In this document: positions 5,140-31,203 of the stretch, piece after piece
Position numbering within the stretch: position 1 is the stretch's first letter
Layout: each line of letters begins with the position of its first letter
DNA from: an uncultured Gammaproteobacteria bacterium
Lineage (GTDB): Bacteria; Patescibacteriota; Patescibacteriia; UBA1558; GWA2-36-10
DNA: 64,000 bases
Direction of reading: 5' to 3'
NCBI GenBank assembly: GCA_964633905.1
Contig: CAZWIT010000001.1
Span: forward strand, 65,535-129,534
Made by a program: the position numbers and the translations under genes
Notes under the pieces: model-generated
What the model saw: only the letters and a program-made list of their open reading frames with translations
What the model was told of the DNA's origin: nothing
Database searches by the model: none

Positions 5140-5295
5140 ATAAAAAAAACAGCTCAGCTTTTCCTTAAAAACTGGGCTTTTTTGTGTACAATTTTTATAT
5201 TGACAAAAATTATAGGAGTGCTAGCATATAGGCTTATCTAGCATAAAGGATGCTAAGTTCTTCGGAAGTAGTATCAAGGGGGTATAGGCAATTTG

Positions 5296-5370
5296 CCGCG
5301 CGTAGCTCAGCTGGACAGAGCACTCTCATTACGAAGAGAGAGGTCGGAGGTTCAAGTCCTTCCGCGTGCC
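5296..5370 (+). tRNA. tRNA, probably Val (anticodon TAC)
   Basis: Cloverleaf: D-arm GCTCAGCTGGACAGAGC, T-arm GGAGGTTCAAGTCCTTC, anticodon region CTCTC-ATTACGA(A)-GAGAG resembling E. coli tRNA-Val(UAC). The anticodon loop appears to be 8 nt and the acceptor stem has a mismatch, so it needs a tRNAscan check. It overlaps a spurious ORF 5250..5876. Confidence 0.6.
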
Positions 5371-5372
5371 CC

Positions 5373-5420
5373 CGGGCTCGCTGGCGTAAAAAAACGTCAG
5401 CGAGCCCTTTATTTTTGACA
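5373..5420 (+). terminator. Rho-independent terminator after the tRNA
   Basis: GGGCTCGCTGGCG-taaaaaaa-CGTCAGCGAGCCC stem followed by TTTATTTTT. Confidence 0.7.
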
Positions 5421-5504
5421 AAAATTTTTAATTATGTTAATTTTGCTTGTCGATTGTTATTTGTAAATTCCTTACTATTAGTCTCAAAACAAGGGAGGGT
5501 AAGC

Positions 5505-5876
5505 ATGTCTTTTGAATTGAAGATGGGCTTGTTTACATTAGCCATACTACTATTTACCTTAGGTTTATTGGTAATTTTGCGTATTAAATATCGGCGCGAT
5601 CGGCGTCCTTTTCGGGCGCGCCAAAGAGCAATGACTTTTACTTCTGCAACTTGGAAAATCTATGAAATCAAGATTTCTAGGATTTTTATTACAGCGACGA
5701 TTCGCTTGGCACATAATCCTAGTTTGCGTTGTGAAGAGTTGGAGTTTGCTTTGGATCATCCTGATACTAAGCTTTTGCGGCAAAAGATGGCTTTAGAACT
5801 AATTAATTTTACACATACCGATGAGGCAGTAAGTAAGGATTTATCCAAGCGCAGTAGCTATCTGCGCGTAGCTTGA
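5505..5876 (+). CDS. Small membrane-anchored basic protein, unknown function (SD-bearing cassette)
   Basis: Strong SD AAGGGAGGG 6 nt before ATG 5505, which is unusual for this genome. One TM helix then an Arg-rich region. Own promoter-like TTGACA(5423)-17-TAATTT and terminator at 5898-5930. The ORF-track ORF 5250..5876 is an artefactual 5' extension through the tRNA. Confidence 0.5.
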   Translation: MSFELKMGLFTLAILLFTLGLLVILRIKYRRDRRPFRARQRAMTFTSATWKIYEIKISRIFITATIRLAHNPSLRCEELEFALDHPDTKLLRQKMALELINFTHTDEAVSKDLSKRSSYLRVA

Positions 5877-6006: not shown

Positions 6007-7050
6007 ATGTCAAAACAAGAAAATTCAGCAAAAAAGGAGCGTATTTTAACTGGCATGCGACCAACTGGCAGTCTGCACCTGGGACATTATGTTGGCGCTT
6101 TAGAAAATTGGATTAAATTGCAGAATGAGTATGACTGTCATTTTTTGATTGCTGATTATCAAGCCTTTGGTGATTATGCGGATAATATTTCTAAAATCAG
6201 AGATTCGGTTATCCAAGTAACAATAGATTGGTTGTCAGTTGGTTTGGATCCAAATAAAAATACTTTTGTTATTCAAAGCTATGTGCCAGAACACGCAGAG
6301 CTAGCCATGCTTTTGAGTATGATTACTCCTAGGGTATTAATTGATCGTAATCCAACTTTAAAAGACGAATCAGCTTTACAAAAAGATATTTCTTTAGGTT
6401 TTTATAATTATCCGGCTAGCCAAGCGGCTGATATACTTTTACCAAAAGCAAATTTAGTGCCAGTAGGCGAGGATCAGTTGCCTCACATTGAGCTTACTCG
6501 GGAAATTGCTAGAAGATTTAATCGTATGTACGGCGAAATTTTTCCTTTGCCCAAAGCTTTAGTAGGTAGGGTGCCGCGTTTAATAGGGATTGATGGTAAG
6601 GCTAAGATGAGTAAGAGTTTGGGTAATTGTATTTATTTGTCAGATAGTGCTGATTTGGTCGAGAAAAAAGTCAAAAAAATGTACACTGATCCAACTAGAC
6701 TTAAAGCCACTGATCCAGGTCATATTGAGGGTAATGTAGTTTTTACTTATTTAGACGCTTTTTATCATGACAAAACAGAGCTTGATAATTTAAAGAAAGA
6801 ATATCGGGCTGGTAAGCTAGGCGATGCTCAAGTAAAGAGTCTTTTGACAGGAATATTAAATAATTTTTTGGAGCCAATTAGAGAAAAAAGAGCTTTTTAT
6901 CAAGCTCATCCAGAAATGATTAAAGATGCCTTAATTGAAGGTACGCAAAAAAATAAAAAATTAGCAGCAACTACCATGGCCGAAGTTAAAGAAGCTATGA
7001 AAATAACAGCTTACGAAGACATTAAAAATATTAAAAAAATAATTTTATAA
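6007..7050 (+). CDS. trpS: Tryptophanyl-tRNA synthetase (housekeeping copy)
   Basis: TGSLHLGHYVGAL (HIGH-like) and KMSKSLGN motifs. AT-rich native codon usage. No SD. Confidence 0.95.
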   Translation: MSKQENSAKKERILTGMRPTGSLHLGHYVGALENWIKLQNEYDCHFLIADYQAFGDYADNISKIRDSVIQVTIDWLSVGLDPNKNTFVIQSYVPEHAELAMLLSMITPRVLIDRNPTLKDESALQKDISLGFYNYPASQAADILLPKANLVPVGEDQLPHIELTREIARRFNRMYGEIFPLPKALVGRVPRLIGIDGKAKMSKSLGNCIYLSDSADLVEKKVKKMYTDPTRLKATDPGHIEGNVVFTYLDAFYHDKTELDNLKKEYRAGKLGDAQVKSLLTGILNNFLEPIREKRAFYQAHPEMIKDALIEGTQKNKKLAATTMAEVKEAMKITAYEDIKNIKKIIL

Positions 7051-7213: not shown

Positions 7214-8356
7214 ATGGTTGGTGTAGATAGAGAAAGGTTAATTAATTTATTTTTTGATCTAGTTAGGATAAAAAGTCCTTCTGGCGAAGAGAGGGAGTTA
7301 GCTGTATTTATTTCAAATCTGTTGGAGCAATTGGATTTTTCGGTTACCAGTGATGCTTATGGGAATATTGTAGCCAAGCTTGCAGGCATTGGCGAGTCAA
7401 TAGTATTGTGTAGTCACATGGATACTGTGCCTATTGGTGGTGATTTTATTAGGCCGCAGATTGTTGATGGAAATAAGATTACTAGTGATGGTAATACTAT
7501 TTTAGGTGCGGATAACAAAGACTCGATAGCTGCTATTTTTGAAAGTATTTTTTTGGCTAGAGAAAATAAGTTATCTCATAGGCCAATAGAGCTAGTTTTT
7601 ACTAGGCAGGAAGAGTTGATTTCTCTTGGTGCTAAACAGCTAGATATGTCACTTATTTCTGGAAAGAATTGTATTATTTCAGATAATGCCGCGCCCTATG
7701 GCTTGATTACTTTAGGTGCGCCATATAATTATAGATTTAATATTGTGATCAATGGTAAGCGTTCTCATGTTAAAGAGCCAGAGCGTGGGGTTGATGTTTT
7801 TAAGATTTTGGCTAGGGCGATCGCTGTAGAAGGGTTACCCTTGGGCAGAATTGATGATTGGACTACTTCTAATTTAGCTCAGGGCTTTCTTGGTTTGGAT
7901 GGAGAGATAACTAAGGCAGATTTGAAGGTAGAAAATTTGTCAGACTATCCTAGAAATACTGTGCCAGACATTTGTTGCCTATTTGGAGAATTAAGAAGTT
8001 TAAAAGTTGAATCTTTGAAATTAGCTACAGATAATATTCGTATAGCCTTAGAAAAAGCAACAGCTTTTTATGGTGGCACCATTGATTTCCAGATTAATTC
8101 CGTAGCTGACGGATATTTGTATGATAAAGAAGATCCTCTAGTTGTTGAGATTGTATCCATTTTTAAAGATCAAAATATCGAGCCTCGATTTTTTGAATCA
8201 GTTGGCGGATCTGATGCCAATGTTTTAATTCATAAAGGCCTTAAGACCGTAGTCATTAGTTCGGCACATAGAGATAACCACAAAAAGACAGAATTTGTTT
8301 TGATAGATGAACTTGTATTGTTAGCAGATTTTTATTTGCGCGTAATATGCTCTTAA
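7214..8356 (+). CDS. M20-family metallopeptidase (ArgE/DapE/PepT-like)
   Basis: N-terminal LVRIKSPSGEE…, HMDTVP metal-binding motif, overall M20 architecture. Upstream TTGACA(7104)-TATAAT promoter. Confidence 0.75.
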   Translation: MVGVDRERLINLFFDLVRIKSPSGEERELAVFISNLLEQLDFSVTSDAYGNIVAKLAGIGESIVLCSHMDTVPIGGDFIRPQIVDGNKITSDGNTILGADNKDSIAAIFESIFLARENKLSHRPIELVFTRQEELISLGAKQLDMSLISGKNCIISDNAAPYGLITLGAPYNYRFNIVINGKRSHVKEPERGVDVFKILARAIAVEGLPLGRIDDWTTSNLAQGFLGLDGEITKADLKVENLSDYPRNTVPDICCLFGELRSLKVESLKLATDNIRIALEKATAFYGGTIDFQINSVADGYLYDKEDPLVVEIVSIFKDQNIEPRFFESVGGSDANVLIHKGLKTVVISSAHRDNHKKTEFVLIDELVLLADFYLRVICS

Positions 8357-8413: not shown

Positions 8414-9226
8414 TTAAGTAATTTTATTAATTATTTTTTTTACTTTATTTTTGGAAATTCTTTGTTGCCAGCCTTTGACGTTGATTTCATTATTTTTATT
8501 ATTACCTTCTTTTAGAGAAGTGCTGACAATAACTCCATTAGCATATTGTAATAATGTTTTAATATTTTTATGGTCAGCTCCGCTACCGATAAATATTGGG
8601 AAATTACCAACGCTATTTCTTAATTTTTTTAACTCATCAAGATTAGGCGCTTGGCCAGTCCAATTGCCAGTAATAATTAAAGCATCAGAGCCGCTCTTAA
8701 TTGCCATTTTTGCAGATTGATATAAATTGTATTTTGATAATATTTTTGAGTGCTTAACGTGAATATCGGTAAAAAGTAAAATATTATTTGCTTTTAATTG
8801 TTGGCGGTATTTAACAGCTTGTTTATATACAGGCTCAACTAAACCGCAACTGGTACGAACTTTATCTACAAATACAGGTATTCTAATAAATTTTAAATCT
8901 AAAGTTTTGGCAATGCTTAAGCTTGTTTTATAGTCATTCCACAGGGTGCTAATGCCGATTGGTAATGTGCTTTGTTTTTTAATTTTTTCTCCTAAATAAG
9001 TCATGGCGACAATAGTTTCAGGGTTTACCATTATTTGGTGGGGGATATCGTAATTATTTTCAAAAATAACAGCATCAACTCCACCATCACTAAAGGCTTT
9101 AAGATCACTTAAGGCATTCTGGCTAGCGATTTTAAAACCAGGGAAATCAGGATAAGCTAAAAGTGGGGGAAAATGCAGAGCCCCAATGATAATATTTTTA
9201 TTTTTTTTGAATATTTTTTTTAACAT
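8414..9226 (-). CDS. BtpA/SgcQ-family TIM-barrel protein
   Basis: Start MLKKIFKKNKNIIIGALHFPPLLAYPDFPGFK… is typical of the BtpA family (PF03437). Native AT-rich composition. Confidence 0.75.
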   Translation of the reverse strand: MLKKIFKKNKNIIIGALHFPPLLAYPDFPGFKIASQNALSDLKAFSDGGVDAVIFENNYDIPHQIMVNPETIVAMTYLGEKIKKQSTLPIGISTLWNDYKTSLSIAKTLDLKFIRIPVFVDKVRTSCGLVEPVYKQAVKYRQQLKANNILLFTDIHVKHSKILSKYNLYQSAKMAIKSGSDALIITGNWTGQAPNLDELKKLRNSVGNFPIFIGSGADHKNIKTLLQYANGVIVSTSLKEGNNKNNEINVKGWQQRISKNKVKKIINKIT

Positions 9227-9278
9227 AATTTATTATTTATAATAATAGCATAAAATTTAAAATGTATATATATTTAAA

Positions 9279-9308
9279 TGCGCTAGGCAAGTGTGAACTT
9301 GCCTAGCG
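9279..9308. terminator. Perfect 12-bp stem hairpin between convergent/tandem minus-strand genes
   Basis: GCGCTAGGCAAG-TGTGAA-CTTGCCTAGCGC. Lies just downstream (on the minus strand) of the TrpD-like gene stop. Confidence 0.6.
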
Positions 9309-9323
9309 CATTGTATCACAATC

Positions 9324-10487
9324 TTAATTTGGTAACATCTTAGCTACCAATCTCATCGTTTCAAGGGCTTGGCCACTTTTGAGAGCAGCTTCAGCCATTT
9401 TGAAACCTTCGGCAAAAGATTTGCAATAACCAGCTAGGTAGTAGAGCAAGGAAGCGTTCGCATAGACAGTGCTCATGCGTTCGCCGTTAATTTCTCCAGA
9501 CAGGAGCTGGAGCGAATATTCGCCTTTATTGCCAATCGGGCGCACAGCTTCCAGTGGGATAGGGTGAATACCAAAATTTTCGGCACTAAGCTCGTATTCC
9601 AAAATTTCTTCATTACGCAATTCAGCAACTTGAGTACCACCATGGCACACAGAAGCTTCGTCCATACCAAAGATTCTTGATTCATCAGCAAAACCACGAA
9701 TAAATAGGCCGTGCTTGAGATGTGTTAAGCCTTTCTGATTAAGAATCAAATAAACTTCAGCTACGACGCGAGGCGGGATCAGTTGATTCACGCCCAGAAC
9801 ACGCCTGGTCATGAGTTTAGTGGATATAGGATTAGTGATGGGTCCGATGATGTCATTCATATGGGGTAGTTTAGCAAAGCTATGGGTTTGCAAATGAATC
9901 TTTTTGTAGCGAGTATCAAGTGCTTCCGTATACCCAAAATTATATTTTCTCAATGCTTCCATTACTTTGTCTTTGTCGGCAAAAGTATTAATGCGACAAA
10001 TTTTAGAAACAAAATCAGAACTACCATAAAGACCTTTATCAGCATTGGCAGGGGAACCGTGTTTGCACATCGGTATGCCATCAGAGGCAGCAATAAATGC
10101 TGACACCGTGCTAATATTAGCGGTAACGATCAGATCGCCACCCATGCCGCAATTATCCATTGCAAATTCCATTTCCGGGTTCAAGAATCCAAATTCGGAT
10201 TTAGCAATATCATGTTCAAAAATAGCAGCACAGATACCAGCAATTTGTTCAGCTGGACTCTTGGGCAGTGGATGACCGTGATGTTCTTCAAGACGCTTGT
10301 TCCATTGCCAGTTATAGGTAGCTTGGCTGTGCAGAGCGCAAAGGACAGCCACGCTTTGTATCTGCGCAAGGGCATTACCAGCGCATCCATCTAGCGTGTA
10401 GACACCCAAGGCGTAAGCTTCGTCATATGTCAAAGGAATATTCTGATAAGCATGATCTTTGAGTAGGTGCTTGACATCGATGGGCAT
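9324..10487 (-). CDS. Glycosyltransferase family 3 protein, anthranilate phosphoribosyltransferase (TrpD)-like paralog
   Basis: GMGGDL (the TrpD GTGGD PRPP motif) and CKHGSPANADKG (TrpD KHGNR region). SD AAGGAG 8 nt before ATG (MPIDVKHLL…). Elevated GC (~48%). The track ORF 9324..10532 includes a 5' extension. Confidence 0.7.
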   Translation of the reverse strand: MPIDVKHLLKDHAYQNIPLTYDEAYALGVYTLDGCAGNALAQIQSVAVLCALHSQATYNWQWNKRLEEHHGHPLPKSPAEQIAGICAAIFEHDIAKSEFGFLNPEMEFAMDNCGMGGDLIVTANISTVSAFIAASDGIPMCKHGSPANADKGLYGSSDFVSKICRINTFADKDKVMEALRKYNFGYTEALDTRYKKIHLQTHSFAKLPHMNDIIGPITNPISTKLMTRRVLGVNQLIPPRVVAEVYLILNQKGLTHLKHGLFIRGFADESRIFGMDEASVCHGGTQVAELRNEEILEYELSAENFGIHPIPLEAVRPIGNKGEYSLQLLSGEINGERMSTVYANASLLYYLAGYCKSFAEGFKMAEAALKSGQALETMRLVAKMLPN

Positions 10488-10519
10488 TGTTGGTGCTCCT
10501 TCTTTTAGGCTAGTTGCCT

Positions 10520-11023
10520 TTATCCCAACCACTCTATTAGCTTGTCCATTCCTAGTCTCACGGTATTGTGAATAGATATTATAACCATTTGATGAGATTC
10601 GGAATCTTTATTTCCATTAGGGTCTATTATGTCACTAACATCAGTGGATAATTCCCCGAATAATCTTATTTTATAAAAATATTGGGGGAATTGTTCTTTA
10701 AGTTTAGTCAGTATGTAAGAATCCATGGCCAATATTTGTTCAGCCTGGTGAATTATGTCGTTATCTATCGGAGTAGATTTTTTATCAATAGGTATTTCTA
10801 TACCTATATTATCCAGGTATGGTTTAGCCAAATTATATTCTTCTGAGTAATCACGAAGATTAAGATGTTTTGGTAAGGGTAGACCCATTGTGCCTTGTAA
10901 GCTTCTAGAAACTACACTTATAGTATCTTCTTTGCCTATTTTTTTTATTTCTTTTTGCATACATAATTCAGCAATCACTGAGCGATATATATTGCCTTTG
11001 CAGACTATTAAAATGGTTTTCAT
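10520..11023 (-). CDS. Low-molecular-weight protein tyrosine phosphatase / ArsC-like (CX5R P-loop)
   Basis: VCKGNIYRS P-loop near the N-terminus and a C-terminal DP motif. SD AAGGAGG 8 nt upstream. First gene of a minus-strand operon with the TrpD-like gene. Confidence 0.7.
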   Translation of the reverse strand: MKTILIVCKGNIYRSVIAELCMQKEIKKIGKEDTISVVSRSLQGTMGLPLPKHLNLRDYSEEYNLAKPYLDNIGIEIPIDKKSTPIDNDIIHQAEQILAMDSYILTKLKEQFPQYFYKIRLFGELSTDVSDIIDPNGNKDSESHQMVIISIHNTVRLGMDKLIEWLG

Positions 11024-11149
11024 TTCTTTAGCCTCCTTGTTTTGCGGGAAATTTGTAATATCGTTTTACAACCTAAGCTATAATGTTAAAGAGCAAGTCG
11101 ATAAATTAAACATAAATGTACGAAAAAGTCAATAAAAAAACTTCTTATC

Positions 11150-11425
11150 CTCTTGTTACAAATATAATATTTGTACTAAAAGGACGAGAAGCTTCCCGTG
11201 GTACCACCTTTATTATTTTGATTGTTATGACAAATTAAAAAATCTGTCAGTAAAACAGATCAAAATCACTTTTACCGACTCAAGCCCCATTAGCTTATGC
11301 TTATGGCGACATCAGTTAGCCCATGATTACGGAGGCTGCCGAGTTATCACTAACGCAATAACCATCTCTGCGTGCCCAACCCCGCAATTTGCGGGACACG
11401 CTTCATAGATTTTGTAATTTTCAAA
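11150..11425 (-). ncRNA. Candidate T-box riboswitch leader (minus strand) upstream of the phosphatase/TrpD-like operon
   Basis: The minus-strand RNA contains AAUAAAGGUGGUACCACGGG. This matches the T-box antiterminator consensus AAUUAGGGUGGUACCGCGG at 18/20 positions. It lies in a GC-richer, hairpin-dense ~270-nt leader between a candidate minus-strand promoter (TTGACA at plus 11460-11465 as complement) and the ATG at 11023. A terminator helix could not be folded convincingly by eye. Confidence 0.4.
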
Positions 11426-11480
11426 GTATTAATATTATCTTATATTTTATTATTATTTTTGTCAAGCTTGTTATTAATGC

Positions 11481-11515
11481 CTTGACATAAGCCTTTTTTT
11501 ATGTATAATACCATT
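11481..11515 (+). promoter_or_regulatory. Consensus sigma70 promoter for tRNA-Trp (TTGACA-16-TATAAT)
   Basis: cTTGACAtaagcctttttttatgTATAATacc, ~20 nt upstream of the tRNA 5' end. The minus-strand -35 TTGACA (complement of plus 11460-11465) lies just upstream, ~16 nt away (back-to-back, not overlapping). Confidence 0.6.
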
Positions 11516-11537
11516 ATATTTAGTTCATGTCATTGGT

Positions 11538-11612
11538 GGGCGCGTCGGTTAATTGGTAAACCACTGGTCTCCAAAACCAGGACTGGGGGTTCGAGTCCCT
11601 CCGCGCCTGCCA
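11538..11612 (+). tRNA. tRNA-Trp (anticodon CCA), CCA encoded
   Basis: Acceptor GGGCGCG/CGCGCCU, D-arm GGTTAATTGGTAAAACC, anticodon stem-loop CTGGT-CTCCAAA-ACCAG, T-loop TTCGAGT, discriminator G, 3' CCA. Confidence 0.85.
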
Positions 11613-11634
11613 CCCTAAAATATGGCTCAGATCT

Positions 11635-11660
11635 AGCTCAGATTTGAGCTTTTTATTTTT
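11635..11660 (+). terminator. Intrinsic terminator after tRNA-Trp
   Basis: AGCTCA-GATT-TGAGCT followed by TTTTATTTTT. Confidence 0.6.
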
Positions 11661-11827
11661 GACAATTATTTAGAATTATGGTAATTTCATAGGCAATTTA
11701 AGGTACATTGATAATATAAAGAAAGTACCATTTTCTATACAAAAACTGATATTTTTAGCGATTTTGGAAATATAGTTTTTACTTGTTAACTTCACCACAA
11801 CTAACACAGGAAAACGGAGGTGATGAC

Positions 11828-12862
11828 ATGCAAAATAAGCGTATCCTGACAGGTATGCGTACGACCGGCAGATTGCACCTTGGTCATTTTGTTGGCGCGT
11901 TGCATAGTTGGCTGGAATTGGAAAGAGAATATGAATGTTATTTTTTGTTAGCTGATGTTCAAGCTCTTACTACTCATTTTGATCGCGTGGCTGAGATTGA
12001 GGAATCAGTACGACAAGTGGTCATTGACTGGTTGTCGGTTGGCCTTGATCCCAAGCATTCTGCTTTTGTACTGCAATCAGCAGTGCGGGAATATCCGGAA
12101 CTTACTACCTATTTAGCCTTGCTAACCAGCATGGCTGAGCTAGAGAGAAATCCTACGCTAAAGGACGAGATCAAGCAACACGGCATGTCTTCAGTGAATT
12201 TGGGATTTATGATGTATCCTGTTTCACAGGCAGCTGATATTTTGCTATTCACTCCTGATCCCAGTGATCCGGAAGCTGAACTGCTAGTGCCAGTTGGCGA
12301 AGATCAGGTGCCTCATATTGAAATGAGTCGCGATTTGGCGCGGGCTTTTAATCGCCAATATGGCGATACTTTTGTTTTGCCTAAAGCTAAGGTTGGTTTT
12401 ATTCCGCGTTTGGGTGATTTGAGCGGTGGTCAGAAGAAGATGGGTAAAAGCTATGGTAATGCTATCTACCTATCTGATAATAGTAGCGATGTTTCAGAAA
12501 AAGTTCGTCTGGGTACCACTGATCCTAATAAGGCTAGAAAAAATGATCCGGGTAATCCTGACATTTGTCCAGTTTTTTCTTATCAGCAAATCTTTAATGA
12601 ATCAGAAGAGTTTCAGATTCGTAAGGATTGTATAGCTGGTAGTTTGGGTTGTGTTGATTGTAAGGCCCGCTTGGCTCAATCAATCAACACTTTTCTAGAG
12701 CCAATGCGTGATCGTAGATCAGATGTTGAACAAAAACCCGATATTGTTGCTGAAGCTGTTTGGTCCGGCACCAACCGTGCTTGTGAAATTGGTCAGAGGA
12801 CCATGGAGGAAGTGCGGCGGGTAATGCACCTGGACTACCCAAGTCTTCCCAAGCCGTCCTAA
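11828..12862 (+). CDS. Second tryptophanyl-tRNA synthetase paralog (TrpRS-II), higher GC, KMGKS variant
   Basis: TGRLHLGHFVGAL and KMGKSYGN (KMSKS→KMGKS). ~60% identity to the copy at 6007. RBS GGAGGTGA 5 nt before ATG 11828; the track ORF 11783 is a 5' extension. GC ~45% against ~35% background. Confidence 0.9.
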   Translation: MQNKRILTGMRTTGRLHLGHFVGALHSWLELEREYECYFLLADVQALTTHFDRVAEIEESVRQVVIDWLSVGLDPKHSAFVLQSAVREYPELTTYLALLTSMAELERNPTLKDEIKQHGMSSVNLGFMMYPVSQAADILLFTPDPSDPEAELLVPVGEDQVPHIEMSRDLARAFNRQYGDTFVLPKAKVGFIPRLGDLSGGQKKMGKSYGNAIYLSDNSSDVSEKVRLGTTDPNKARKNDPGNPDICPVFSYQQIFNESEEFQIRKDCIAGSLGCVDCKARLAQSINTFLEPMRDRRSDVEQKPDIVAEAVWSGTNRACEIGQRTMEEVRRVMHLDYPSLPKPS

Positions 12863-12877
12863 GGGAGGTTAGTGGTC

Positions 12878-14281
12878 ATGGAAGAAACCAAAATGTTTTC
12901 CGGTCGATGGCCCCTGGTGGGGGCCAAAGACGACACGATCCGAGCTTTCTTGGATCAGCAGTTTAAGGAAACTATTCGTTGGGGTGAAAGCGAAGTCCTG
13001 GGTTTTCCCAGTATGTCGCCACACCCTTTGGGTTTGGATATTTTGCAACAGGGTTTTCTGTTGCACGCTAACAATATTATGACCCTGACTCGTAGTAGGG
13101 GAGAAAAAGGTTTTGCTGGTTTTCAAAATATCGAGCGTGATTTGATTAATATGGTTGGCAACCTGTTGGGTGCCAAGCAAGTTGACGGCTACGTTACTTC
13201 TGGTGGAACTGAAGCTAATATGATGGGTTTGTGGGTTGGTCGTGAGAAGCTACGGCACACTGTTGTTGATCCGAGTGATAATCGGGTAGCGGTGTTAGCT
13301 TCGTCAGCTTCCCATTATAGTCTGCGTAAGGCTTGTAATCTTTTGGATTTGGGCGAGGGTATTTGGACTCCTTGTGCCAAGCCTTGCTTGGATCCTATTG
13401 GTAATAAGCCGATTAAGCATGTTTTTCATCCGTCAAACAATGGCGGTGGCCTGCATTTCATCAAGTGCGATGAAAGTGGTCGTATCGATGTTGTTGAATT
13501 GGAACGACGCATTTGTCATTTGCGTGAGCATTACGGCATTCGTCGTTTCCTGATTTTTTTGAATGAAGGTACGACTTTGACTGGCGCTATGGACAATGTC
13601 CAAAGCGTCGGCTCTCTAGTTTCTTGTTTGCGTAATGAAGTTTCGCAGCAGTGGGATTTTTATATTCATGTTGACGCTGCTTATGGTGGCTTTGTTTACC
13701 CCTTCTTGCGTGAAACGCAAGACATGAATTGGGGTTTTCGAGTGCCTCAAGTTGATTCTATGACAGTTGATCCGTATAAGATGGGGCAGTGCCCCTTGGC
13801 TGAAGGGATTTTCTTGTGTCGGCGTTCCGAACAAGGTGATGGTCCGCAATGCTATATCGAGCGTTCGGCTCATTATGTTGATGGTGCTCAAGATGATACT
13901 TTGATTGGTTCGCGTGCCGGCGCTTTTGCCGCAGCTTGCTGGGCTGTTTTCCAGCGAGAGGGTTCGAGCGGCTTTGCCGGTATGCATTCCGCATCTTTGC
14001 TGCAACGTGACTATTTGGCTGATCGTTTGGCCAAGTTGTCTTTGCAACCTCAGTGTCATTTGAATATGGTATCTTTCTATTTTCCTCAAGATCTGAATAG
14101 TGCTGTTTGGCGTCGGATGGCTGATTTGGTTACCGACTATCGTTTGATGTGGGATTGGTTTAGCCGTGATCCTGAGGATCCGGAAGATCATCCCCGCAAG
14201 ATCGTCAAGTTTAATATTACTCGTGACGTAAAAAGCGAGTGGATTGATAACTTCATTTCCGATTTGGAGAAGATTTTTTGA
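12878..14281 (+). CDS. PLP-dependent group II amino-acid decarboxylase (aromatic/tyrosine-decarboxylase-like)
   Basis: SGGTEANMMGL (S-G-G-T-E-[AS]-N signature) and TVDPYKMG (PLP-lysine region of MfnA/SPL-like decarboxylases). SD AGGGAGG 9 nt before ATG. GC ~52%. Translationally coupled to the upstream trpS paralog (16 nt gap). Confidence 0.8.
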   Translation: MEETKMFSGRWPLVGAKDDTIRAFLDQQFKETIRWGESEVLGFPSMSPHPLGLDILQQGFLLHANNIMTLTRSRGEKGFAGFQNIERDLINMVGNLLGAKQVDGYVTSGGTEANMMGLWVGREKLRHTVVDPSDNRVAVLASSASHYSLRKACNLLDLGEGIWTPCAKPCLDPIGNKPIKHVFHPSNNGGGLHFIKCDESGRIDVVELERRICHLREHYGIRRFLIFLNEGTTLTGAMDNVQSVGSLVSCLRNEVSQQWDFYIHVDAAYGGFVYPFLRETQDMNWGFRVPQVDSMTVDPYKMGQCPLAEGIFLCRRSEQGDGPQCYIERSAHYVDGAQDDTLIGSRAGAFAAACWAVFQREGSSGFAGMHSASLLQRDYLADRLAKLSLQPQCHLNMVSFYFPQDLNSAVWRRMADLVTDYRLMWDWFSRDPEDPEDHPRKIVKFNITRDVKSEWIDNFISDLEKIF

Positions 14282-14417: not shown

Positions 14418-15803
14418 ATGTTGCTATCAACATTTATCTTACTGCTTGTTTGGCTAATAAATTTTTCCTTATTGATATTTATTTTAGTTCAAAAAAATCG
14501 TCCGCGGCGCTGGCCAATATTTACTATGGTAGCGCTGCTTTTTATTTGGCAAGCTTCAGAGTTAGCTAATATTTTTTTATTTTTGGACAGTCCTTATCTC
14601 TTGTTGTCTGTACGTTTTGGTCTGCTGCCAACTTTATATTTAGCGCCAACTTGGGTTTGGCTAACTTGGTCGCTATTTGATCACTGGTCGACAACTAAGC
14701 TATTTAAAAAAATATTATGGTTTGTGCCAGCTATTATTTTGTCGCCATTGGTTTTTACTGACTATAATTTGAGCAAAGTTATTTTTGATAAAGGAGAATT
14801 ATCTTATGTACCTGGTCCGATTTATATTTATTTTGTTTTATATTTTGCCTTATTGATGGCCTATGGTTTGTATTATTTAATTCGTAATCGCAAAACAGCA
14901 GCTAGTATTGTCAAAAGACAAATTGATTATATTTTTATTGCCACTGCCTTAGTAGCTCTTTCTGCTATTTTGTTAAACGTAGTTTTACCTTTATTAGGTG
15001 TTTCTAATTTATATTATATTGGTGTTAATGTTTCTATATTTTTCACAGCTATTGTTACTTATGCCTTATTTCATGAAAGATTTTATGATTTAAGGATAGC
15101 TAGTTATCGGACAGTAGTTGATTTGTGGCGTTTGTTTATTACTGGTGCTATTTTTTATTTATTATTTATACTGCTTAAGCAGGTAATAGTAGTAGACTTT
15201 AATCAAGGTGCCAATATTATTGTTGGCTTCATTGTTTTAGGACTATTAGCACCAATTGTGTTTGAGGGAGTGAGTCGTTCTTTGGATTATTTGATTGTGA
15301 ATCCAGCTTGGGACTACACGCAAGCCCTGGATAATATTGCTAAAATTTTACGTTCCAGCCAAGATTTAAATTTTTTACTAGCTAATCTTACTAAGGAAAT
15401 TAGTCATATTATTGATTATAATGATATTTATTTGTATTTATCTAAGCGCCATAAGCCTGATATTTTTTATCAAGTCTTTCCTAGCGGTGAAAGATTATTG
15501 GCTCTTAATGAAAATCTCTGGCTACAAAAATTAGCTCAAGATAAAGAAATTAAGCAAACTGCCGAATTGGTTTATTGGCAAGGGGATTCGCAAATCACGG
15601 CCGAGCTTTTAAATAGTCATATTGACATTGCTTTGCCAGTGTTTTATAATCAACAGCTTTTGGGAATATTGTTAATAGATAATAAACAAAAACTATTATC
15701 CATACAACAATTGGAATTTTTAATTGAAGTTAATAAATATCTAGATATTGCCATTGGCAGTTTATTATTGTATGAGCAGGCCTTAGTAGGAAAGCAATCG
15801 TAG
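14418..15803 (+). CDS. Membrane protein: histidine-kinase-type 7TM sensor domain + C-terminal GAF domain, no kinase output
   Basis: N-terminal ~7 TM helices homologous to the N-terminus of the HK at 23314, then a GAF-like region (…QQLLGILLIDNKQKLLSIQQLEFLIEVNKYLDIAIGSLLLYEQA). Confidence 0.65.
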   Translation: MLLSTFILLLVWLINFSLLIFILVQKNRPRRWPIFTMVALLFIWQASELANIFLFLDSPYLLLSVRFGLLPTLYLAPTWVWLTWSLFDHWSTTKLFKKILWFVPAIILSPLVFTDYNLSKVIFDKGELSYVPGPIYIYFVLYFALLMAYGLYYLIRNRKTAASIVKRQIDYIFIATALVALSAILLNVVLPLLGVSNLYYIGVNVSIFFTAIVTYALFHERFYDLRIASYRTVVDLWRLFITGAIFYLLFILLKQVIVVDFNQGANIIVGFIVLGLLAPIVFEGVSRSLDYLIVNPAWDYTQALDNIAKILRSSQDLNFLLANLTKEISHIIDYNDIYLYLSKRHKPDIFYQVFPSGERLLALNENLWLQKLAQDKEIKQTAELVYWQGDSQITAELLNSHIDIALPVFYNQQLLGILLIDNKQKLLSIQQLEFLIEVNKYLDIAIGSLLLYEQALVGKQS

Positions 15804-15833
15804 GAAGAAATAATATTATATTAATATAATAAA

Positions 15834-16532
15834 ATGGAAAAATTTTTAATACAACAAAATTTAGTTTTATTTATTGTTGGCCTAGTTAATTTATTAATGG
15901 GCGTGTTTATTTTTAGTCGCGGAGTAAAGAATAAAATAAATTTGTATTTTAGTTGCATGACTTTGGCTAATTTTTTTTGGTCTTTAAGTTTAATACTTTT
16001 TAATTTAAGTTCCAATCAAGAGACATTGAGATTTTTTGCTAGCCTGCCCTATGCCTTTGCTTTTTTAGTGGTGGTATTTTTGTTTTATTTTTCTATATAT
16101 TTTCCTTATAAAATTTTTAATTTACCAAAAATTTATAAATGGTTATTAAACTTTATTGTGGTTATTGTGTTAGTTTATACTACCGTTTTTTATAGATTGT
16201 TCGTTGTAGAAACAATAATCTGGCCTGGTAATATGGCAAATTTTAATTTATTATCTTATGTAATATACACTTTATTATTAGTTTTATTAATGTTGGCGGC
16301 TCTTATATTTTTATTTTATAAATATCGTTTGGCGGAGGGTTTATTTAAATGGCAATTAAAAGTTGTATTTTGGGGAGTATTTTTAGGTACTTTTTTTGGC
16401 AGTTATTTTAATTTATTCTCAATGTATAATGATGATTTTGATTATGTTCATTTAGGCCCTTTATTTACATTATTTATTAATTTTATAGTTTTAGGTTTTA
16501 TTATAATGCCAAAGGATAAAATAAATAATTAA
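15834..16532 (+). CDS. Stand-alone 7TM sensor-domain membrane protein (paralog 1)
   Basis: 232 aa, all TM. Shares the KYRLAEGLFKWQLK… motif with the HK N-terminus and with the adjacent paralog. Confidence 0.6.
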   Translation: MEKFLIQQNLVLFIVGLVNLLMGVFIFSRGVKNKINLYFSCMTLANFFWSLSLILFNLSSNQETLRFFASLPYAFAFLVVVFLFYFSIYFPYKIFNLPKIYKWLLNFIVVIVLVYTTVFYRLFVVETIIWPGNMANFNLLSYVIYTLLLVLLMLAALIFLFYKYRLAEGLFKWQLKVVFWGVFLGTFFGSYFNLFSMYNDDFDYVHLGPLFTLFINFIVLGFIIMPKDKINN

Positions 16533-16535
16533 TTT

Positions 16536-17237
16536 ATGAATATTTTTTTAACAGTACAAATTATAACATTAACCTTTGCAACTTTAATTAATTTGTTGAT
16601 GAGTATTTTAGTGGCTAAGCGTGGCTTAAAAAATAAAATAAATAGGTATTTTAGCATTGTAACATTTTTTAATTTTTTATGGAGCTTTACAGTAATATGT
16701 GCTTTTTCTGGAGTTGCAATAGAGTTAGTTAATTTTTTTGATAAAACCACTAATTTTCTTAGTATTGGTATTATTTTATCTTTGTTTTATTTTTCTTTAC
16801 ATTTTCCCTATCAAAGAGAAGAAATAGATAAAGTTAAAACTACTATAATTTGGTTATTTACTATTTTATTATCCAGTATAATTTATACTAAGTGGTTTAT
16901 TATTAGTACTGTTTGGAGAATGAGACCATTTGATTATATTTCGTATTTTAATAGATATGGCTATTTTATTTATGTTACTTATTTTTTTATGTTAGCAATT
17001 TGGTCAATTTATTTATTATTTGTTAAATATAAACATGCTGAGGGTTTAGCTAAAAAGCAATTAAAATGGTTAATTTTAAGCATTAGTATTGGCTTATTTG
17101 GTGGCGCCTATTTTAATATATTGTTAAATTACTTAGGAGAATTTAGTTTAGGTTGGCTTGGTCCAATTTTTACTTTATTTATGAACATTACTGTTTTCTA
17201 TTTTATTATATCCTCTAAAGATAAGATTAATGACTAG
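16536..17237 (+). CDS. Stand-alone 7TM sensor-domain membrane protein (paralog 2)
   Basis: 233 aa. KYKHAEGLAKKQLKWL… motif. Tandem to the paralog at 15834. Confidence 0.6.
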   Translation: MNIFLTVQIITLTFATLINLLMSILVAKRGLKNKINRYFSIVTFFNFLWSFTVICAFSGVAIELVNFFDKTTNFLSIGIILSLFYFSLHFPYQREEIDKVKTTIIWLFTILLSSIIYTKWFIISTVWRMRPFDYISYFNRYGYFIYVTYFFMLAIWSIYLLFVKYKHAEGLAKKQLKWLILSISIGLFGGAYFNILLNYLGEFSLGWLGPIFTLFMNITVFYFIISSKDKIND

Positions 17238-31139: not shown

Positions 31140-31203
31140 AAAAGCGTTTTGGAGGATAAAATTATTTTAAACAATTAATCAAAATTATATGCTGAGGTTA
31201 AAA
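31140..31203 (+). repeat. Direct repeat DR2 (64 bp), contains the start codon of the giant RHS gene
   Basis: Same 64-mer as DR1 with tc→ct at the ATG(c/t)(t/c)GAGG position. ATG 31189 of the RHS ORF lies inside it. Confidence 0.9.

Follow-up and report, generated by a model that had tools for sequence, protein, structure and literature searches.

A TrpD paralogue and a BtpA/SgcQ-family protein behind a tryptophan-specific T-box: a possible tryptophan supply or salvage module of ultra-small symbionts

In chlamydiae, a 'tryptophan recapture' operon (trpR-trpD-trpC-trpBA, along with kynU and prsA) was reportedly described by Xie, Bonner and Jensen in 2002. AMP phosphorylase is known in the nucleotide salvage of CPR bacteria and archaea. 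The BtpA/SgcQ family is known from a cyanobacterial photosystem I 'biogenesis' protein and from the sgc operon of E. coli; the literature searched contained nothing relevant on a biochemical function for this family. The same literature contained no description of TrpD (anthranilate phosphoribosyltransferase), BtpA or a T-box in connection with CPR/Patescibacteria, and none of a pathway combining a phosphatase with a TrpD-like protein, in agreement with what the sequence-only reading had supposed. A large part of microbial diversity belongs to the CPR bacteria and DPANN archaea, which are believed to obtain all their amino acids by import. Their genomes are described as lacking amino-acid biosynthesis, and the Minisyncoccus genome paper in which this is stated does not mention tryptophan, anthranilate or BtpA (PMC12281837).

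The window, meaning the whole 64,000-nt stretch of DNA that was analysed, carries on its minus strand, in 5'→3' order, a Trp T-box, a low-molecular-weight (LMW) phosphatase gene, a gene for a TrpD-like GT3 protein, here called TrpDL, and then a BtpA gene. The two minus-strand open reading frames first noticed in the sequence, 10520-11023 (167 aa) and 9324-10532 (402 aa), are both present; neither BtpA nor the Trp (UGG) specifier of the T-box was mentioned at that stage. The features of the locus and its flanks are as follows.

6007..7050, plus strand: tryptophanyl-tRNA synthetase (TrpRS) copy 1 (TIGR00233, 290 bits)
7214..8356, plus strand: M20 metallohydrolase, PepT-like / ArgE-DapE-type (profile matches)
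8414..9226, minus strand: BtpA/SgcQ-family phosphate-binding TIM barrel (PF03437, TIGR00259)
9277..9312, minus strand: strong hairpin between TrpDL and BtpA (RNAfold, -28.6 kcal/mol)
9324..10487, minus strand: TrpDL, 387 aa (Pfam, TIGR01245, homologue alignment, AlphaFold)
10520..11023, minus strand: LMW phosphatase (LMWPc), 167 aa (Pfam PF01451)
11128..11197, minus strand: predicted intrinsic terminator of the T-box, long hairpin and U7 (RNAfold)
11177..11415, minus strand: T-box leader, tRNA-Trp specific (Rfam RF00230 match)
11437..11465, minus strand: putative sigma-70-type promoter of the leader, TTGACA / 17-nt spacer / TAAGAT (10 of 12 consensus matches)
11538..11612, plus strand: tRNA-Trp (CCA, G73), predicted T-box ligand, divergent from the leader
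11783..12862, plus strand: TrpRS copy 2 (TIGR00233, 262 bits)
12872..14281, plus strand: Group II PLP-dependent decarboxylase (PF00282 and MfnA-like matches, below cut-off)

The tRNA-Trp gene has a perfect consensus promoter at 11482-11509 in a consensus scan. The second TrpRS probably starts at ATG 11828 and sits in a block of 45-48% GC; its pairing with the decarboxylase is seen in the window and in the maps of several other loci.

The mechanical ORF of TrpDL (9324-10532, 402 aa) begins at GTG 10532. The true start is almost certainly ATG 10487, giving 387 aa, because all homologues begin with M-x-(I/D)-(V/I)-K-H at this point and the ATG is preceded, at a distance of 8 nt, by a GAAGGAG ribosome-binding site. 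Therefore, the phosphatase and TrpDL genes probably do not overlap and are 32 nt apart. The N-terminal extension of about 60 aa proposed earlier does not exist. The extra length has three sources: the wrong start accounts for about 15 aa, an insertion in the N-terminal helical domain for about 22 aa, and two short C-domain insertions for the rest. The AlphaFold model (pLDDT 93.6) aligns with TrpD over the full length and has the two-domain GT3 fold with its N-terminal helical domain; Foldseek gave TM values of 0.74/0.86 against 1KGZ over about 387 columns, and TrpD was every one of the 50 Foldseek matches listed. The only Pfam match of the sequence is Glycos_transf_3 (PF00591, 119 bits), PF02885 being undetected at the sequence level. 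Against the TrpD equivalog TIGR01245 the protein scores 140 bits, short of the cut-off of 199, over model positions 67-328 of 330. Homologues 55-73% identical to TrpDL number in the hundreds and come from Patescibacteria (CPR) and archaea of the DPANN type, and BtpA likewise has hundreds of homologues at about 60% identity. With so many relatives, these are real genes and not chance ORFs. Similarity searches also mark TrpDL as a tight family clearly separated from canonical TrpD: 24 representatives are found at E<=1e-30, after which the scores fall to the TrpD level of about 100 bits. Among the longer homologues (436-506 aa), additional Pfam domains were sought and none was found, so that there are no informative fusions beyond those with LMWPc described below.

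Judged from the alignment of 58 homologues, TrpDL keeps every PRPP- and Mg2+-binding element of TrpD, and the residues that hold anthranilate are replaced. The motifs GMGGD (114-118), NIST (124-127), KHG (142-144), GSSD (155-158) and DE (276-277) are invariant or nearly so. In Mtb TrpD, the anthranilate-binding residues are N138, A179/P180/H183 and R193. Where TrpD has KHGNR, TrpDL has K142-H-G-S-P-A-N148, with S145-P146 at the Asn and Arg positions. The AP of FAPxxHP falls in a two-residue gap (EA--LDTRY), and xRTxFN is changed to PHMND, with P208-H209 at the position aligned with Arg. The remodelled acceptor site, made up of KHGSPAN, K195-x-I-H198-x-Q-T-H202 and P208-H-M-N-D212, is thus a set distinct from that of TrpD, and it is invariant across the homologues. 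The earlier observation that GxGGD (G114-M-G-G-D118) and KHG are kept and that KHGSPAN (K142-N148) stands in place of KHGNR is correct. So is its conclusion that TrpDL is not a canonical anthranilate phosphoribosyltransferase: what was found is not an ordinary TrpD with intact anthranilate residues in a fragment of a trp operon, but a protein below the TIGR01245 cut-off, with replaced acceptor residues and no trp genes nearby.

The leader matches RF00230 from end to end (model positions 1-219 of 219; E 7.7e-12), with a score of 58 bits that falls short of the gathering score of 93. Its stem I is short, 24 nt compared with 76 nt in the model. The specifier is UGG+G in the context GGGG-UUGGG-CAC, i.e. 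a Trp codon followed by a purine. The T-box core GGUGGUACCACG, at about 11208, is part of the leader and contains the UGGN bulge. A terminator of -25.7 kcal/mol followed by UUUUUUU and an antiterminator of -7.6 kcal/mol (RNAfold) are mutually exclusive, and specifier plus purine, UGGN bulge and competing terminator and antiterminator are the features expected of a T-box. A UGG-specifier T-box occupies the same place ahead of the operon in 25 of 51 independent loci (L001-L051, the basis of the counts out of 51) and also in L052, one of the additional loci L052-L059 that bring the survey to 59. UGG is kept in 14 of 15 aligned leaders; UGG+G is conserved and the base 5' of UGG is variable. The N of the bulge is U or C, either of which pairs with G73 of tRNA-Trp, and 23 of the 35 consensus pairs show compensatory changes. 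These comparisons indicate that the putative T-box is genuine and Trp-specific, with tRNA binding and antitermination predicted. Such T-box leaders, in which stem I is very short, form a family in Patescibacteria. In L050, the same T-box also precedes an amino-acid dehydrogenase and an aminotransferase, as controlled genes. A family of small ORFs upstream of TrpDL ('c18'), considered as a RiPP precursor, was rejected as the antisense image of the T-box. Co-transcription of TrpDL with the CX5R phosphatase behind the T-box, as first proposed, is supported by this genuine T-box, by its terminator and antiterminator and by the 32-nt gap between the genes.

The phosphatase matches PF01451 (LMWPc) with 47.3 bits (cut-off 23.2) and has the C8-X5-R14-S15 P-loop and a D134-P general acid. 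A search for its homologues returned only the query itself because the protein is fast-evolving, and the alignment was built from 11 locus-derived copies. All 11 cluster-associated homologues, fusions included, keep these motifs, and the sequence is otherwise weakly conserved. The same 11 proteins contain no conserved additional cysteines of the ArsC redox type (Cys82/Cys89 type), so the suggested ArsC-like character is not borne out. Present in about 9 of the 51 loci (about 18%), the phosphatase is an accessory member of the module and not its defining partner. In several genomes LMWPc is fused to TrpDL or to an EamA transporter. Of the pairing of phosphatase and TrpDL put forward earlier, the adjacency in the window stands and is echoed by the fusions elsewhere, but the constant partner of TrpDL is BtpA.

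BtpA is adjacent to TrpDL in 44 of 51 loci, i.e. it is a near-constant partner, and in many operons the core genes are separated by inserted pathway genes. TrpDL occurs without BtpA in L005, L049, L051 and L058, and BtpA without TrpDL in L054. The window protein scores 198 bits against PF03437 (cut-off 30) and 198.6 bits against TIGR00259 (cut-off 153.4); against the cyanobacterial BtpA equivalog it reaches 183 bits and not the cut-off of 400. It is a phosphate-binding (beta/alpha)8 barrel of the same superfamily as TrpF/C/A, and its PDB sequence matches are to TrpA only. Downstream of the hairpin at 9277-9312 the sequence is AT-rich and has -10-like boxes; the hairpin is predicted to act as a terminator or attenuator within the operon or to stabilise the mRNA. 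In other loci, the spacer of about half of the adjacent TrpDL-BtpA pairs contains a comparable GC hairpin and U-run, often with a promoter-like box. This combination of terminator-like hairpin and promoter-like box suggests that BtpA may be outside T-box control.

The smallest form of the operon consists of TrpDL and BtpA alone. A TrpRS gene is found no more than 8 kb from TrpDL in 28 of the 51 loci. In some loci a TrpR-like gene takes the place of the T-box: it is directly upstream of TrpDL in L018, L037 and L040, which have no T-box, and just downstream of BtpA in L045, where the T-box is also absent. To our knowledge, archaea have no T-boxes; the archaeal gene orders are TrpDL-BtpA-TrpRS (L059), TrpDL-HAD-IUNH-AstE-TrpRS (L049) and aaRS-Ib x2 / BtpA / TrpDL (L055). 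The Trp specifier, together with the linkage to TrpRS and TrpR across two domains of life, ties the module to tryptophan. Recurrent accessory genes encode a pyrimidine-5'-nucleotidase-like HAD protein (one accessory HAD weakly matches RuBP 5-phosphatase), an IU nucleoside hydrolase, a ribokinase-like PfkB and a NUDIX protein. The clusters also include EamA transporters, GNAT proteins, AstE-type deacylases and M20 metallohydrolases, the latter in 11 loci and in archaeal L055/L056. Two TrpRS copies near the cluster are found in the window and in several loci, a single TrpRS in most loci; in the TrpRS tree, PLP-decarboxylase-linked copies are not separated from methyltransferase-linked copies. 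The family 'c17' (about 300 aa) and a small PfkB-like kinase have marginal PDB matches (ribulokinase, E 0.29; ribokinase, E 0.004), and c17 has a Pfam hint of fructosamine kinase (E 0.03). The orf208 region of the window was considered as a decayed aminotransferase like that of L004, and tblastn found nothing. A motif scan, a weaker test than one with profiles, detected no TrpA, TrpB, TrpC, TrpE or TrpF in the window and L001-L051, and the called genes of L052-L059 contain no trp-gene Pfam family. Thus none of trpF/C/A/B/E was found within 8 kb in the 59 loci, the stretches that the search covered.

We propose a Trp-starvation-induced, PRPP-dependent module of ultra-small symbionts, built on a neofunctionalised TrpD paralogue with a substrate other than anthranilate, which supplies or salvages tryptophan; we give this proposal about an even chance of being right. 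Uncharged tRNA-Trp would bind the leader RNA through the UGG specifier and through pairing of the UGGN bulge with its NCCA end. The bound tRNA would stabilise the antiterminator over the terminator, allowing transcription of the phosphatase and TrpDL, and BtpA would be transcribed by read-through of the internal hairpin or from its own promoter. TrpDL may transfer a 5-phosphoribosyl group to an acceptor other than anthranilate as bound by TrpD or, in reverse, remove it. BtpA could then act on the ribose-5-phosphate part of the product as an isomerase, lyase or aldolase, in the manner of TrpF/TrpC/TrpA/HisA, and the phosphate would be removed by the LMW phosphatase here and by HAD phosphatases in other genomes. 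The nucleotidase-like HAD, nucleoside hydrolase, PfkB and NUDIX proteins plausibly feed ribose-5-phosphate/PRPP, and the EamA transporter may import the precursor. The net effect would be more tryptophan for the neighbouring TrpRS, either salvaged or made from a host-derived precursor by a short, non-canonical route. With no TrpA/B/C/E/F found in the window or loci, the weak point of this reading is how two core enzymes would yield tryptophan, and the HAD, nucleoside hydrolase, PfkB and NUDIX genes suit general nucleotide or pentose salvage equally well. Also weighing against it are the hairpin that often parts BtpA from TrpDL, the loci that have one of the two without the other, the low frequency of the phosphatase and the sub-threshold Rfam score of the T-box. 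More tentatively, and less likely than not, CPR and DPANN might share a so far unrecognised tryptophan-supply pathway independent of tryptophan synthase, in which TrpDL and BtpA convert a host-derived precursor to Trp or its immediate precursor, with an uncharged tRNA-Trp switch in bacteria and TrpRS as neighbour in archaea. If true, this would be the first enzymatic role for the BtpA/SgcQ family. A highly conserved enzyme pair under a Trp riboswitch in bacteria and linked to TrpRS in both domains suggests active making or salvage of tryptophan, and it bears on the host dependence and cultivation of CPR and DPANN organisms. It also provides a testable functional context for a widespread family, BtpA/SgcQ, and an example of a rebuilt acceptor pocket in a TrpD paralogue.

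The TrpD fold and PRPP/Mg site, Trp T-box control typical of trp operons, and the barrel superfamily that BtpA shares with TrpF/C/A, with TrpA as its only PDB sequence match, could also be explained if TrpDL were a divergent anthranilate phosphoribosyltransferase in anthranilate salvage, with BtpA replacing TrpF and/or TrpC and with TrpA/TrpB elsewhere in the genome. In addition, a class-I glutamine amidotransferase lies ahead of TrpDL in 3 loci, like trpG ahead of trpD. However, this amidotransferase is GuaA/PRK09065-like and not TrpG-like, the score of 140 bits is below the TrpD cut-off, and the anthranilate-contacting Asn, Arg and AP..H segment are swapped for other, invariant residues. We consider this explanation unlikely, given also that trpF/C/A/B/E were not found in the surroundings of TrpDL in the 59 loci, where TrpRS, TrpR and the T-box do cluster, and that CPR and DPANN genomes lack amino-acid biosynthesis (PMC12281837). 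In another alternative, TrpDL would act as a (pyro)phosphorylase of nucleotides or nucleosides in pentose-bisphosphate-type salvage, like AMP phosphorylase in archaea and CPR. BtpA, HAD phosphatases and a PfkB kinase would handle the ribose phosphates, and the Trp link would be regulatory or incidental. AMP and thymidine phosphorylases are members of the GT3 family, the HAD, nucleoside hydrolase, PfkB and NUDIX neighbours and the weak RuBP 5-phosphatase match fit such a role, and the hosts, as far as we know, lack de novo nucleotide synthesis. Yet the UGG T-box, the TrpR-like gene and the TrpRS adjacency in bacteria and archaea would be left unexplained, the minimal operon is TrpDL and BtpA alone, and TrpDL is nearest to TrpD in sequence and structure and has no phosphorylase C-terminal domain. 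The nucleoside-phosphorylase activity entertained by the sequence-only reading is therefore quite improbable.

A role in defence or detoxification, directed at an inhibitor of TrpRS or at a toxic analogue of tryptophan or of a nucleoside, would make use of the EamA transporter as exporter, the GNAT acetyltransferase, the M20 and AstE-type deacylases and a second, resistant TrpRS, such as the two copies in the window and several loci; inhibition of TrpRS would also trigger T-box induction. We regard such a role as very unlikely: conservation of the core enzymes is very strong over hundreds of lineages and in both domains, suggesting housekeeping metabolism, most loci have a single TrpRS, the TrpRS copies form no 'resistance' clade, and TrpR-type control responds to Trp itself. 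Also very unlikely is a nucleic-acid-directed TrpDL like TrpD2/YbiB, with tRNA-Trp as its target or TrpRS as its partner, for instance in PRPP-dependent tRNA ribosylation. The TrpRS linkage is tight, the tRNA-Trp gene is close in the window, and TrpD2 proteins are reported to bind nucleic acids (PMC10123104). Against this, TrpDL has a calculated pI of 6.1, its small-molecule PRPP site is intact, its remodelled acceptor pocket is invariant, and only TrpD is found among the 50 Foldseek matches listed. The L042 locus also has a separate YbiB-type gene (GT3+PF02885) next to lexA, distinct from its TrpDL gene, so that a TrpD2/YbiB-like assignment, also raised initially, does not fit.

Among known systems, TrpDL is closest to TrpD (TIGR01245; PDB 1KGZ, 1ZYK and the Mtb 1ZVW series), with which it shares the GT3 fold over its full length, the GxGGD, NxST, KHG, GS(S/A)D and DE motifs for PRPP and Mg2+ and, in many trp operons, Trp T-box control. 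It differs from TrpD in its 17-30% identity, extra insertions and sub-cut-off score, in the changes of KHGNR to KHGSP and of xRTxFN to PHMND and the loss of AP from FAPxxHP, and in having BtpA as neighbour instead of trpE/G/C/F/B/A. Like TrpD2/YbiB, which is LexA-controlled and nucleic-acid-binding, TrpDL is a TrpD paralogue outside the standard pathway; unlike it, TrpDL is acidic, without lexA linkage or a basic nucleic-acid surface, and has a different conserved pocket, and L042 contains both genes. The nucleoside phosphorylases II (TP / PyNP / AMPpase) belong to the same GT3 superfamily and share ribose-1 chemistry, but TrpDL lacks PYNP_C, with only PF00591 detected, is about 390 aa long compared with 430-500 aa, and matches only TrpD among PDB sequences and the listed Foldseek matches. 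The phosphatase has the CX5R(S) P-loop and Asp general acid of LMW-PTP (PF01451) and differs in the change of the second P-loop Cys to Tyr or His and in lacking ArsC-type cysteines; its fusion to TrpDL or EamA in some genomes suggests a small-molecule substrate. The BtpA protein is a clear member of BtpA/SgcQ by TIGR00259, and its coupling to a TrpD paralogue and TrpRS is not described in the literature searched. Finally, the chlamydial recapture operon differs in its canonical downstream enzymes, absent here, whereas the partner here is BtpA and the acceptor site is not one for anthranilate. In both cases, a Trp-responsive, PRPP-dependent step is found in a host-dependent organism, and the accessory genes may supply PRPP here as prsA does there.

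The window (GC about 34%) belongs to a CPR bacterium, since its closest protein relatives come from Parcubacteria/Patescibacteria MAGs. The sequence-only reading had placed a low-molecular-weight phosphatase and a TrpD-like glycosyltransferase-family-3 protein (TrpDL) together in one operon. Both open reading frames were confirmed on the minus strand, and a BtpA/SgcQ-family gene (BtpA) lies 97 nt downstream of the TrpDL frame.

TrpDL cluster and its control elements (window positions)
11465-11437, minus: promoter-like site, read in the leader sequence
11415-11177, minus: T-box leader (RF00230, sensitive Rfam scan)
10520-11023, minus: low-molecular-weight phosphatase, 167 aa; Pfam LMWPc, 47.3 bits
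9324-10532, minus: TrpDL, mechanical ORF, 402 aa, GTG start; Pfam Glycos_transf_3, 119 bits
9324-10487, minus: TrpDL, corrected gene, 387 aa; internal Met and GAAGGAG
9312-9277, minus: strong hairpin between TrpDL and BtpA, -28.6 kcal/mol
8414-9226, minus: BtpA, 270 aa; Pfam BtpA, 198 bits

All TrpDL homologues start at the internal Met, which GAAGGAG precedes in the window; therefore we adopt the corrected gene, whose start lies 32 nt past the phosphatase stop. Glycos_transf_3 is the sole Pfam domain found in TrpDL. Its AlphaFold model (pLDDT 93.6) superposes end to end on TrpD structures (TM 0.74/0.86, 17-25% identity), and TrpD alone appears among the 50 Foldseek matches listed. Aligned with canonical TrpDs, TrpDL keeps some motifs and replaces others.

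Motifs in canonical TrpD and in TrpDL
PRPP/Mg motifs: GTGGD, NxST, KHG, GSAD, DE in TrpD; GMGGD, NIST, KHG, GSSD, DE in TrpDL (kept)
Segment after KHG: KHGNR in TrpD; KHGSP(A)N in TrpDL
FAPxxHP segment: present in TrpD; AP pair deleted in TrpDL
Arg motif: xRTxFN in TrpD; PHMND in TrpDL
New invariant motif: none in TrpD; K195-x-I-H198-x-Q-T-H202 in TrpDL

The alignment thus agrees with the earlier observation of KHGSPAN in place of KHGNR beside retained PRPP elements. The proposed N-terminal extension of about 60 aa did not hold, as the extra length lies in insertions. The replaced segments are those that we take, from the Sulfolobus and M. tuberculosis structures, to line the anthranilate channel of TrpD. 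Together, alignment and model show that TrpDL has the TrpD fold, that its PRPP/Mg site is intact and that its acceptor pocket is rebuilt yet invariant. HMMER, run exhaustively against 1.84 billion cluster representatives, scored 24 of them at 158-400 bits (E<=1e-30); the next scores are about 100 bits, the level at which ordinary TrpDs start. By this measure TrpDL is a discrete family apart from ordinary TrpD. Its members are spread across many lineages of Patescibacteria (CPR) at 55-73% identity, remoter ones (38-52%) occur in MAGs labelled Nanoarchaeota and 'Marsarchaeota', and loci were also recovered from Woesearchaeota and Nanohaloarchaea.

No T-box was returned by the Rfam scan of the window at the gathering threshold; the sensitive scan matched RF00230 over model positions 1-219 of 219 (58 bits, E 7.7e-12). 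The leader has a K-turn base followed by a very short stem I with UUGGG in its 3' bulge, and its T-box core is GGUGGUACCACG. The antiterminator (-7.6 kcal/mol) is rivalled by a terminator (-25.7 kcal/mol) followed by U7. Compensatory changes affect 23 of 35 consensus pairs. When the loci were searched with a leader profile, 25 of the 51 independent ones had the element directly 5' of their TrpDL operon, as did a further locus, L052. The T-box that had been put forward is therefore upheld. Across the leader alignment UGG and then G are constant, and the preceding base varies (U, C, G). In the UGGN bulge N is U or C, and either one pairs with G73, the discriminator base of the window's own tRNA-Trp. 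Bacterial tRNA-Leu (UUG) carries A73 and tRNA-Gly (GGG) carries U73, so that a Leu or Gly specifier is disfavoured. The specificity is therefore read as tryptophan, and these features show a Trp-specific T-box as the predicted control of the phosphatase and TrpDL. T-box cores of another sequence class (L003:13019, L032:14107) precede an argininosuccinate-lyase-type gene and an Asp/Asn/Lys-type class II aaRS, so T-boxes seem widely used in these CPR genomes. A conserved 'ORF family' of 76-102 aa, 5' of TrpDL on the opposite strand (L046, L047, L048, L021), was rejected as an antisense image of the leader, an annotation trap; several of the loci concerned carry, just upstream, genes for a radical SAM/SPASM protein, a flavin reductase and the chorismate-mutase-like methyltransferase.

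Other features of the window
5295-5373, plus: tRNA gene (Rfam 42 bits; ARAGORN four-base anticodon 'tacg', 8-nt anticodon loop)
11482-14281, plus: consensus promoter, tRNA-Trp(CCA), terminator, tryptophanyl-tRNA synthetase (TrpRS) copy 2, group II PLP decarboxylase
14418-17237, plus: three tandem HisKA_7TM paralogues (7TM region of histidine kinases)
31189-37386, plus: SpvB/RHS-repeat/FG-GAP protein, 2065 aa, toxin-like; putative episymbiont genome

The tRNA-Trp promoter is a perfect consensus, with a terminator 3' of the tRNA. TrpRS copy 2 (probable start ATG 11828) gives the window two TrpRS genes within 6 kb, and the block that it forms with the decarboxylase has 45-48% GC, in surroundings of about 34%. 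The tRNA at 5295-5373, probably of Arg(ACG) type, sits within a mechanical ORF (5250-5876) that had no Pfam match and whose 5' end is probably not genic. The two short HisKA_7TM paralogues lack the kinase domain; several further loci carry homologues close to the cluster. The small ORFs past the SpvB/RHS protein include a DUF7674 protein.

For the neighbourhood survey, ORFs were called and clustered in 50 species-representative loci plus the window, and cluster representatives were annotated; since L001 belongs to the organism of the window, 51 loci count as independent. BtpA was found in 44 loci, nearly always directly downstream of TrpDL on the same strand, and TrpRS within 8 kb of TrpDL in 28. 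The phosphatase occurs in only about 9. Its pairing with TrpDL stands in so far as the two co-occur and are fused (L013, L050, P0018 and P0025; in L021 the phosphatase is fused to EamA); the more constant partner is BtpA. Other neighbours are a small PfkB-like kinase, a chorismate-mutase-like plus methyltransferase fusion and a PLP decarboxylase (12 loci each), an M20 hydrolase (11), a pyrimidine-5'-nucleotidase-like HAD (10, with a second HAD cluster in 4), a Cof-type HAD (6), TrpR-family and radical SAM/SPASM genes (5 each), IU nucleoside hydrolase, NUDIX and GNAT (4 each), AstE/AspA-type deacylase and GuaA-like amidotransferase (3 each), and an EamA transporter directly upstream (at least 4). 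In many CPR loci TrpDL has a TrpRS-decarboxylase or a TrpRS-(chorismate-mutase-like plus methyltransferase) pair beside it.

From the T-box onward the operon core runs from TrpDL to BtpA, with HAD, PfkB, c17 (a family of about 300 aa), GNAT or M20 inserted between. Three T-box-free loci (L018, L037, L040) have a TrpR-like gene immediately 5' of TrpDL, and a fourth (L045) has one just downstream of BtpA. In L050 one T-box heads a Glu/Leu/Phe/Val-type amino-acid dehydrogenase, a class I/II aminotransferase and then the fusion. Reverse look-ups from BtpA were mixed: L052 has a T-box, a divergent TrpDL and BtpA, adjoined by the methyltransferase fusion and TrpRS; in L053 TrpDL is truncated; L054 lacks TrpDL. 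The two genes are thus strongly but not invariably coupled. A motif scan of the window and L001-L051 found no TrpA, B, C, E or F, and so gave no sign of a standard trp operon fragment.

Window BtpA scores above the NCBIfam cut-off for the BtpA/SgcQ subfamily, and in its model (pLDDT 92.5) it folds as a (beta/alpha)8 barrel whose phosphate-binding end is the standard one (G214-S-G, S235-T). In other loci (L002, L008, L011, L016, L019, L026, L028, L030, L033, L034, L048 and others) the TrpDL-BtpA spacer holds a hairpin rich in GC, mostly accompanied by a U-run, and a TATAAT-like box 6-12 nt ahead of the BtpA start codon. Such an arrangement suggests an internal terminator and a leaderless-type promoter; BtpA may thus be expressed apart from the T-box.

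The archaeal loci lack T-boxes and retain the linkage. The gene order is TrpDL-BtpA-TrpRS in L059 (Nanoarchaeota) and TrpDL-HAD-nucleoside hydrolase-AstE-TrpRS, with overlapping genes, in L049 (Nanohaloarchaea). L055/L056 (archaeal MAG, label Marsarchaeota) carries M20, EamA, a SAM hydrolase-like gene, two class-Ib aaRS, BtpA, TrpDL and CysRS, strikingly like the window (CysRS, TrpRS copy 1, M20, BtpA, TrpDL); the window, L004 and L026 likewise have CysRS beside the cluster. This mirroring of the bacterial neighbourhood points to cross-domain transfer of the entire cluster or to strong selection for linkage. Across two domains of life, gene neighbourhoods link TrpDL with BtpA as well as with TrpRS, TrpR or a T-box.

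Public records name TrpDL 'hypothetical' or 'anthranilate phosphoribosyltransferase', and it might be a divergent true TrpD, given its fold and PRPP motifs. However, it scores 140 bits against the TIGR01245 (TrpD, NCBIfam) cut-off of 199 and the anthranilate-channel segments are replaced, in keeping with the earlier view that it is no canonical anthranilate enzyme. The suggested TrpD2/YbiB affinity, and with it a TrpD2-like RNA function, meets a different difficulty: one locus (L042:7609-9290) encodes a YbiB/TrpD2-type protein with N-terminal PF02885, directly upstream of lexA, in addition to TrpDL-BtpA, and the two paralogues are therefore distinct. A nucleotide phosphorylase and a detoxification module are further, unlikely readings. 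The phosphatase of the cluster retains the LMW-PTP catalytic Cys, Arg and Asp, is otherwise poorly conserved and lacks the ArsC cysteines.

Beyond regulation and cofactor binding, we infer a mechanism in which TrpDL would use PRPP to ribosylate, or in reverse deribosylate, a substrate that is not anthranilate in the way TrpD binds it, BtpA would act on the ribose-phosphate moiety, and LMW or HAD phosphatases would perform the last step, the module perhaps serving tryptophan supply. Literature searches returned no account of the TrpDL paralogue, the TrpDL-BtpA pairing or Trp T-boxes in CPR. Accessory genes of the nucleotidase, nucleoside hydrolase, ribokinase-like and NUDIX kinds may just feed ribose-5-phosphate/PRPP, the part ascribed to prsA in the chlamydial trp operon.
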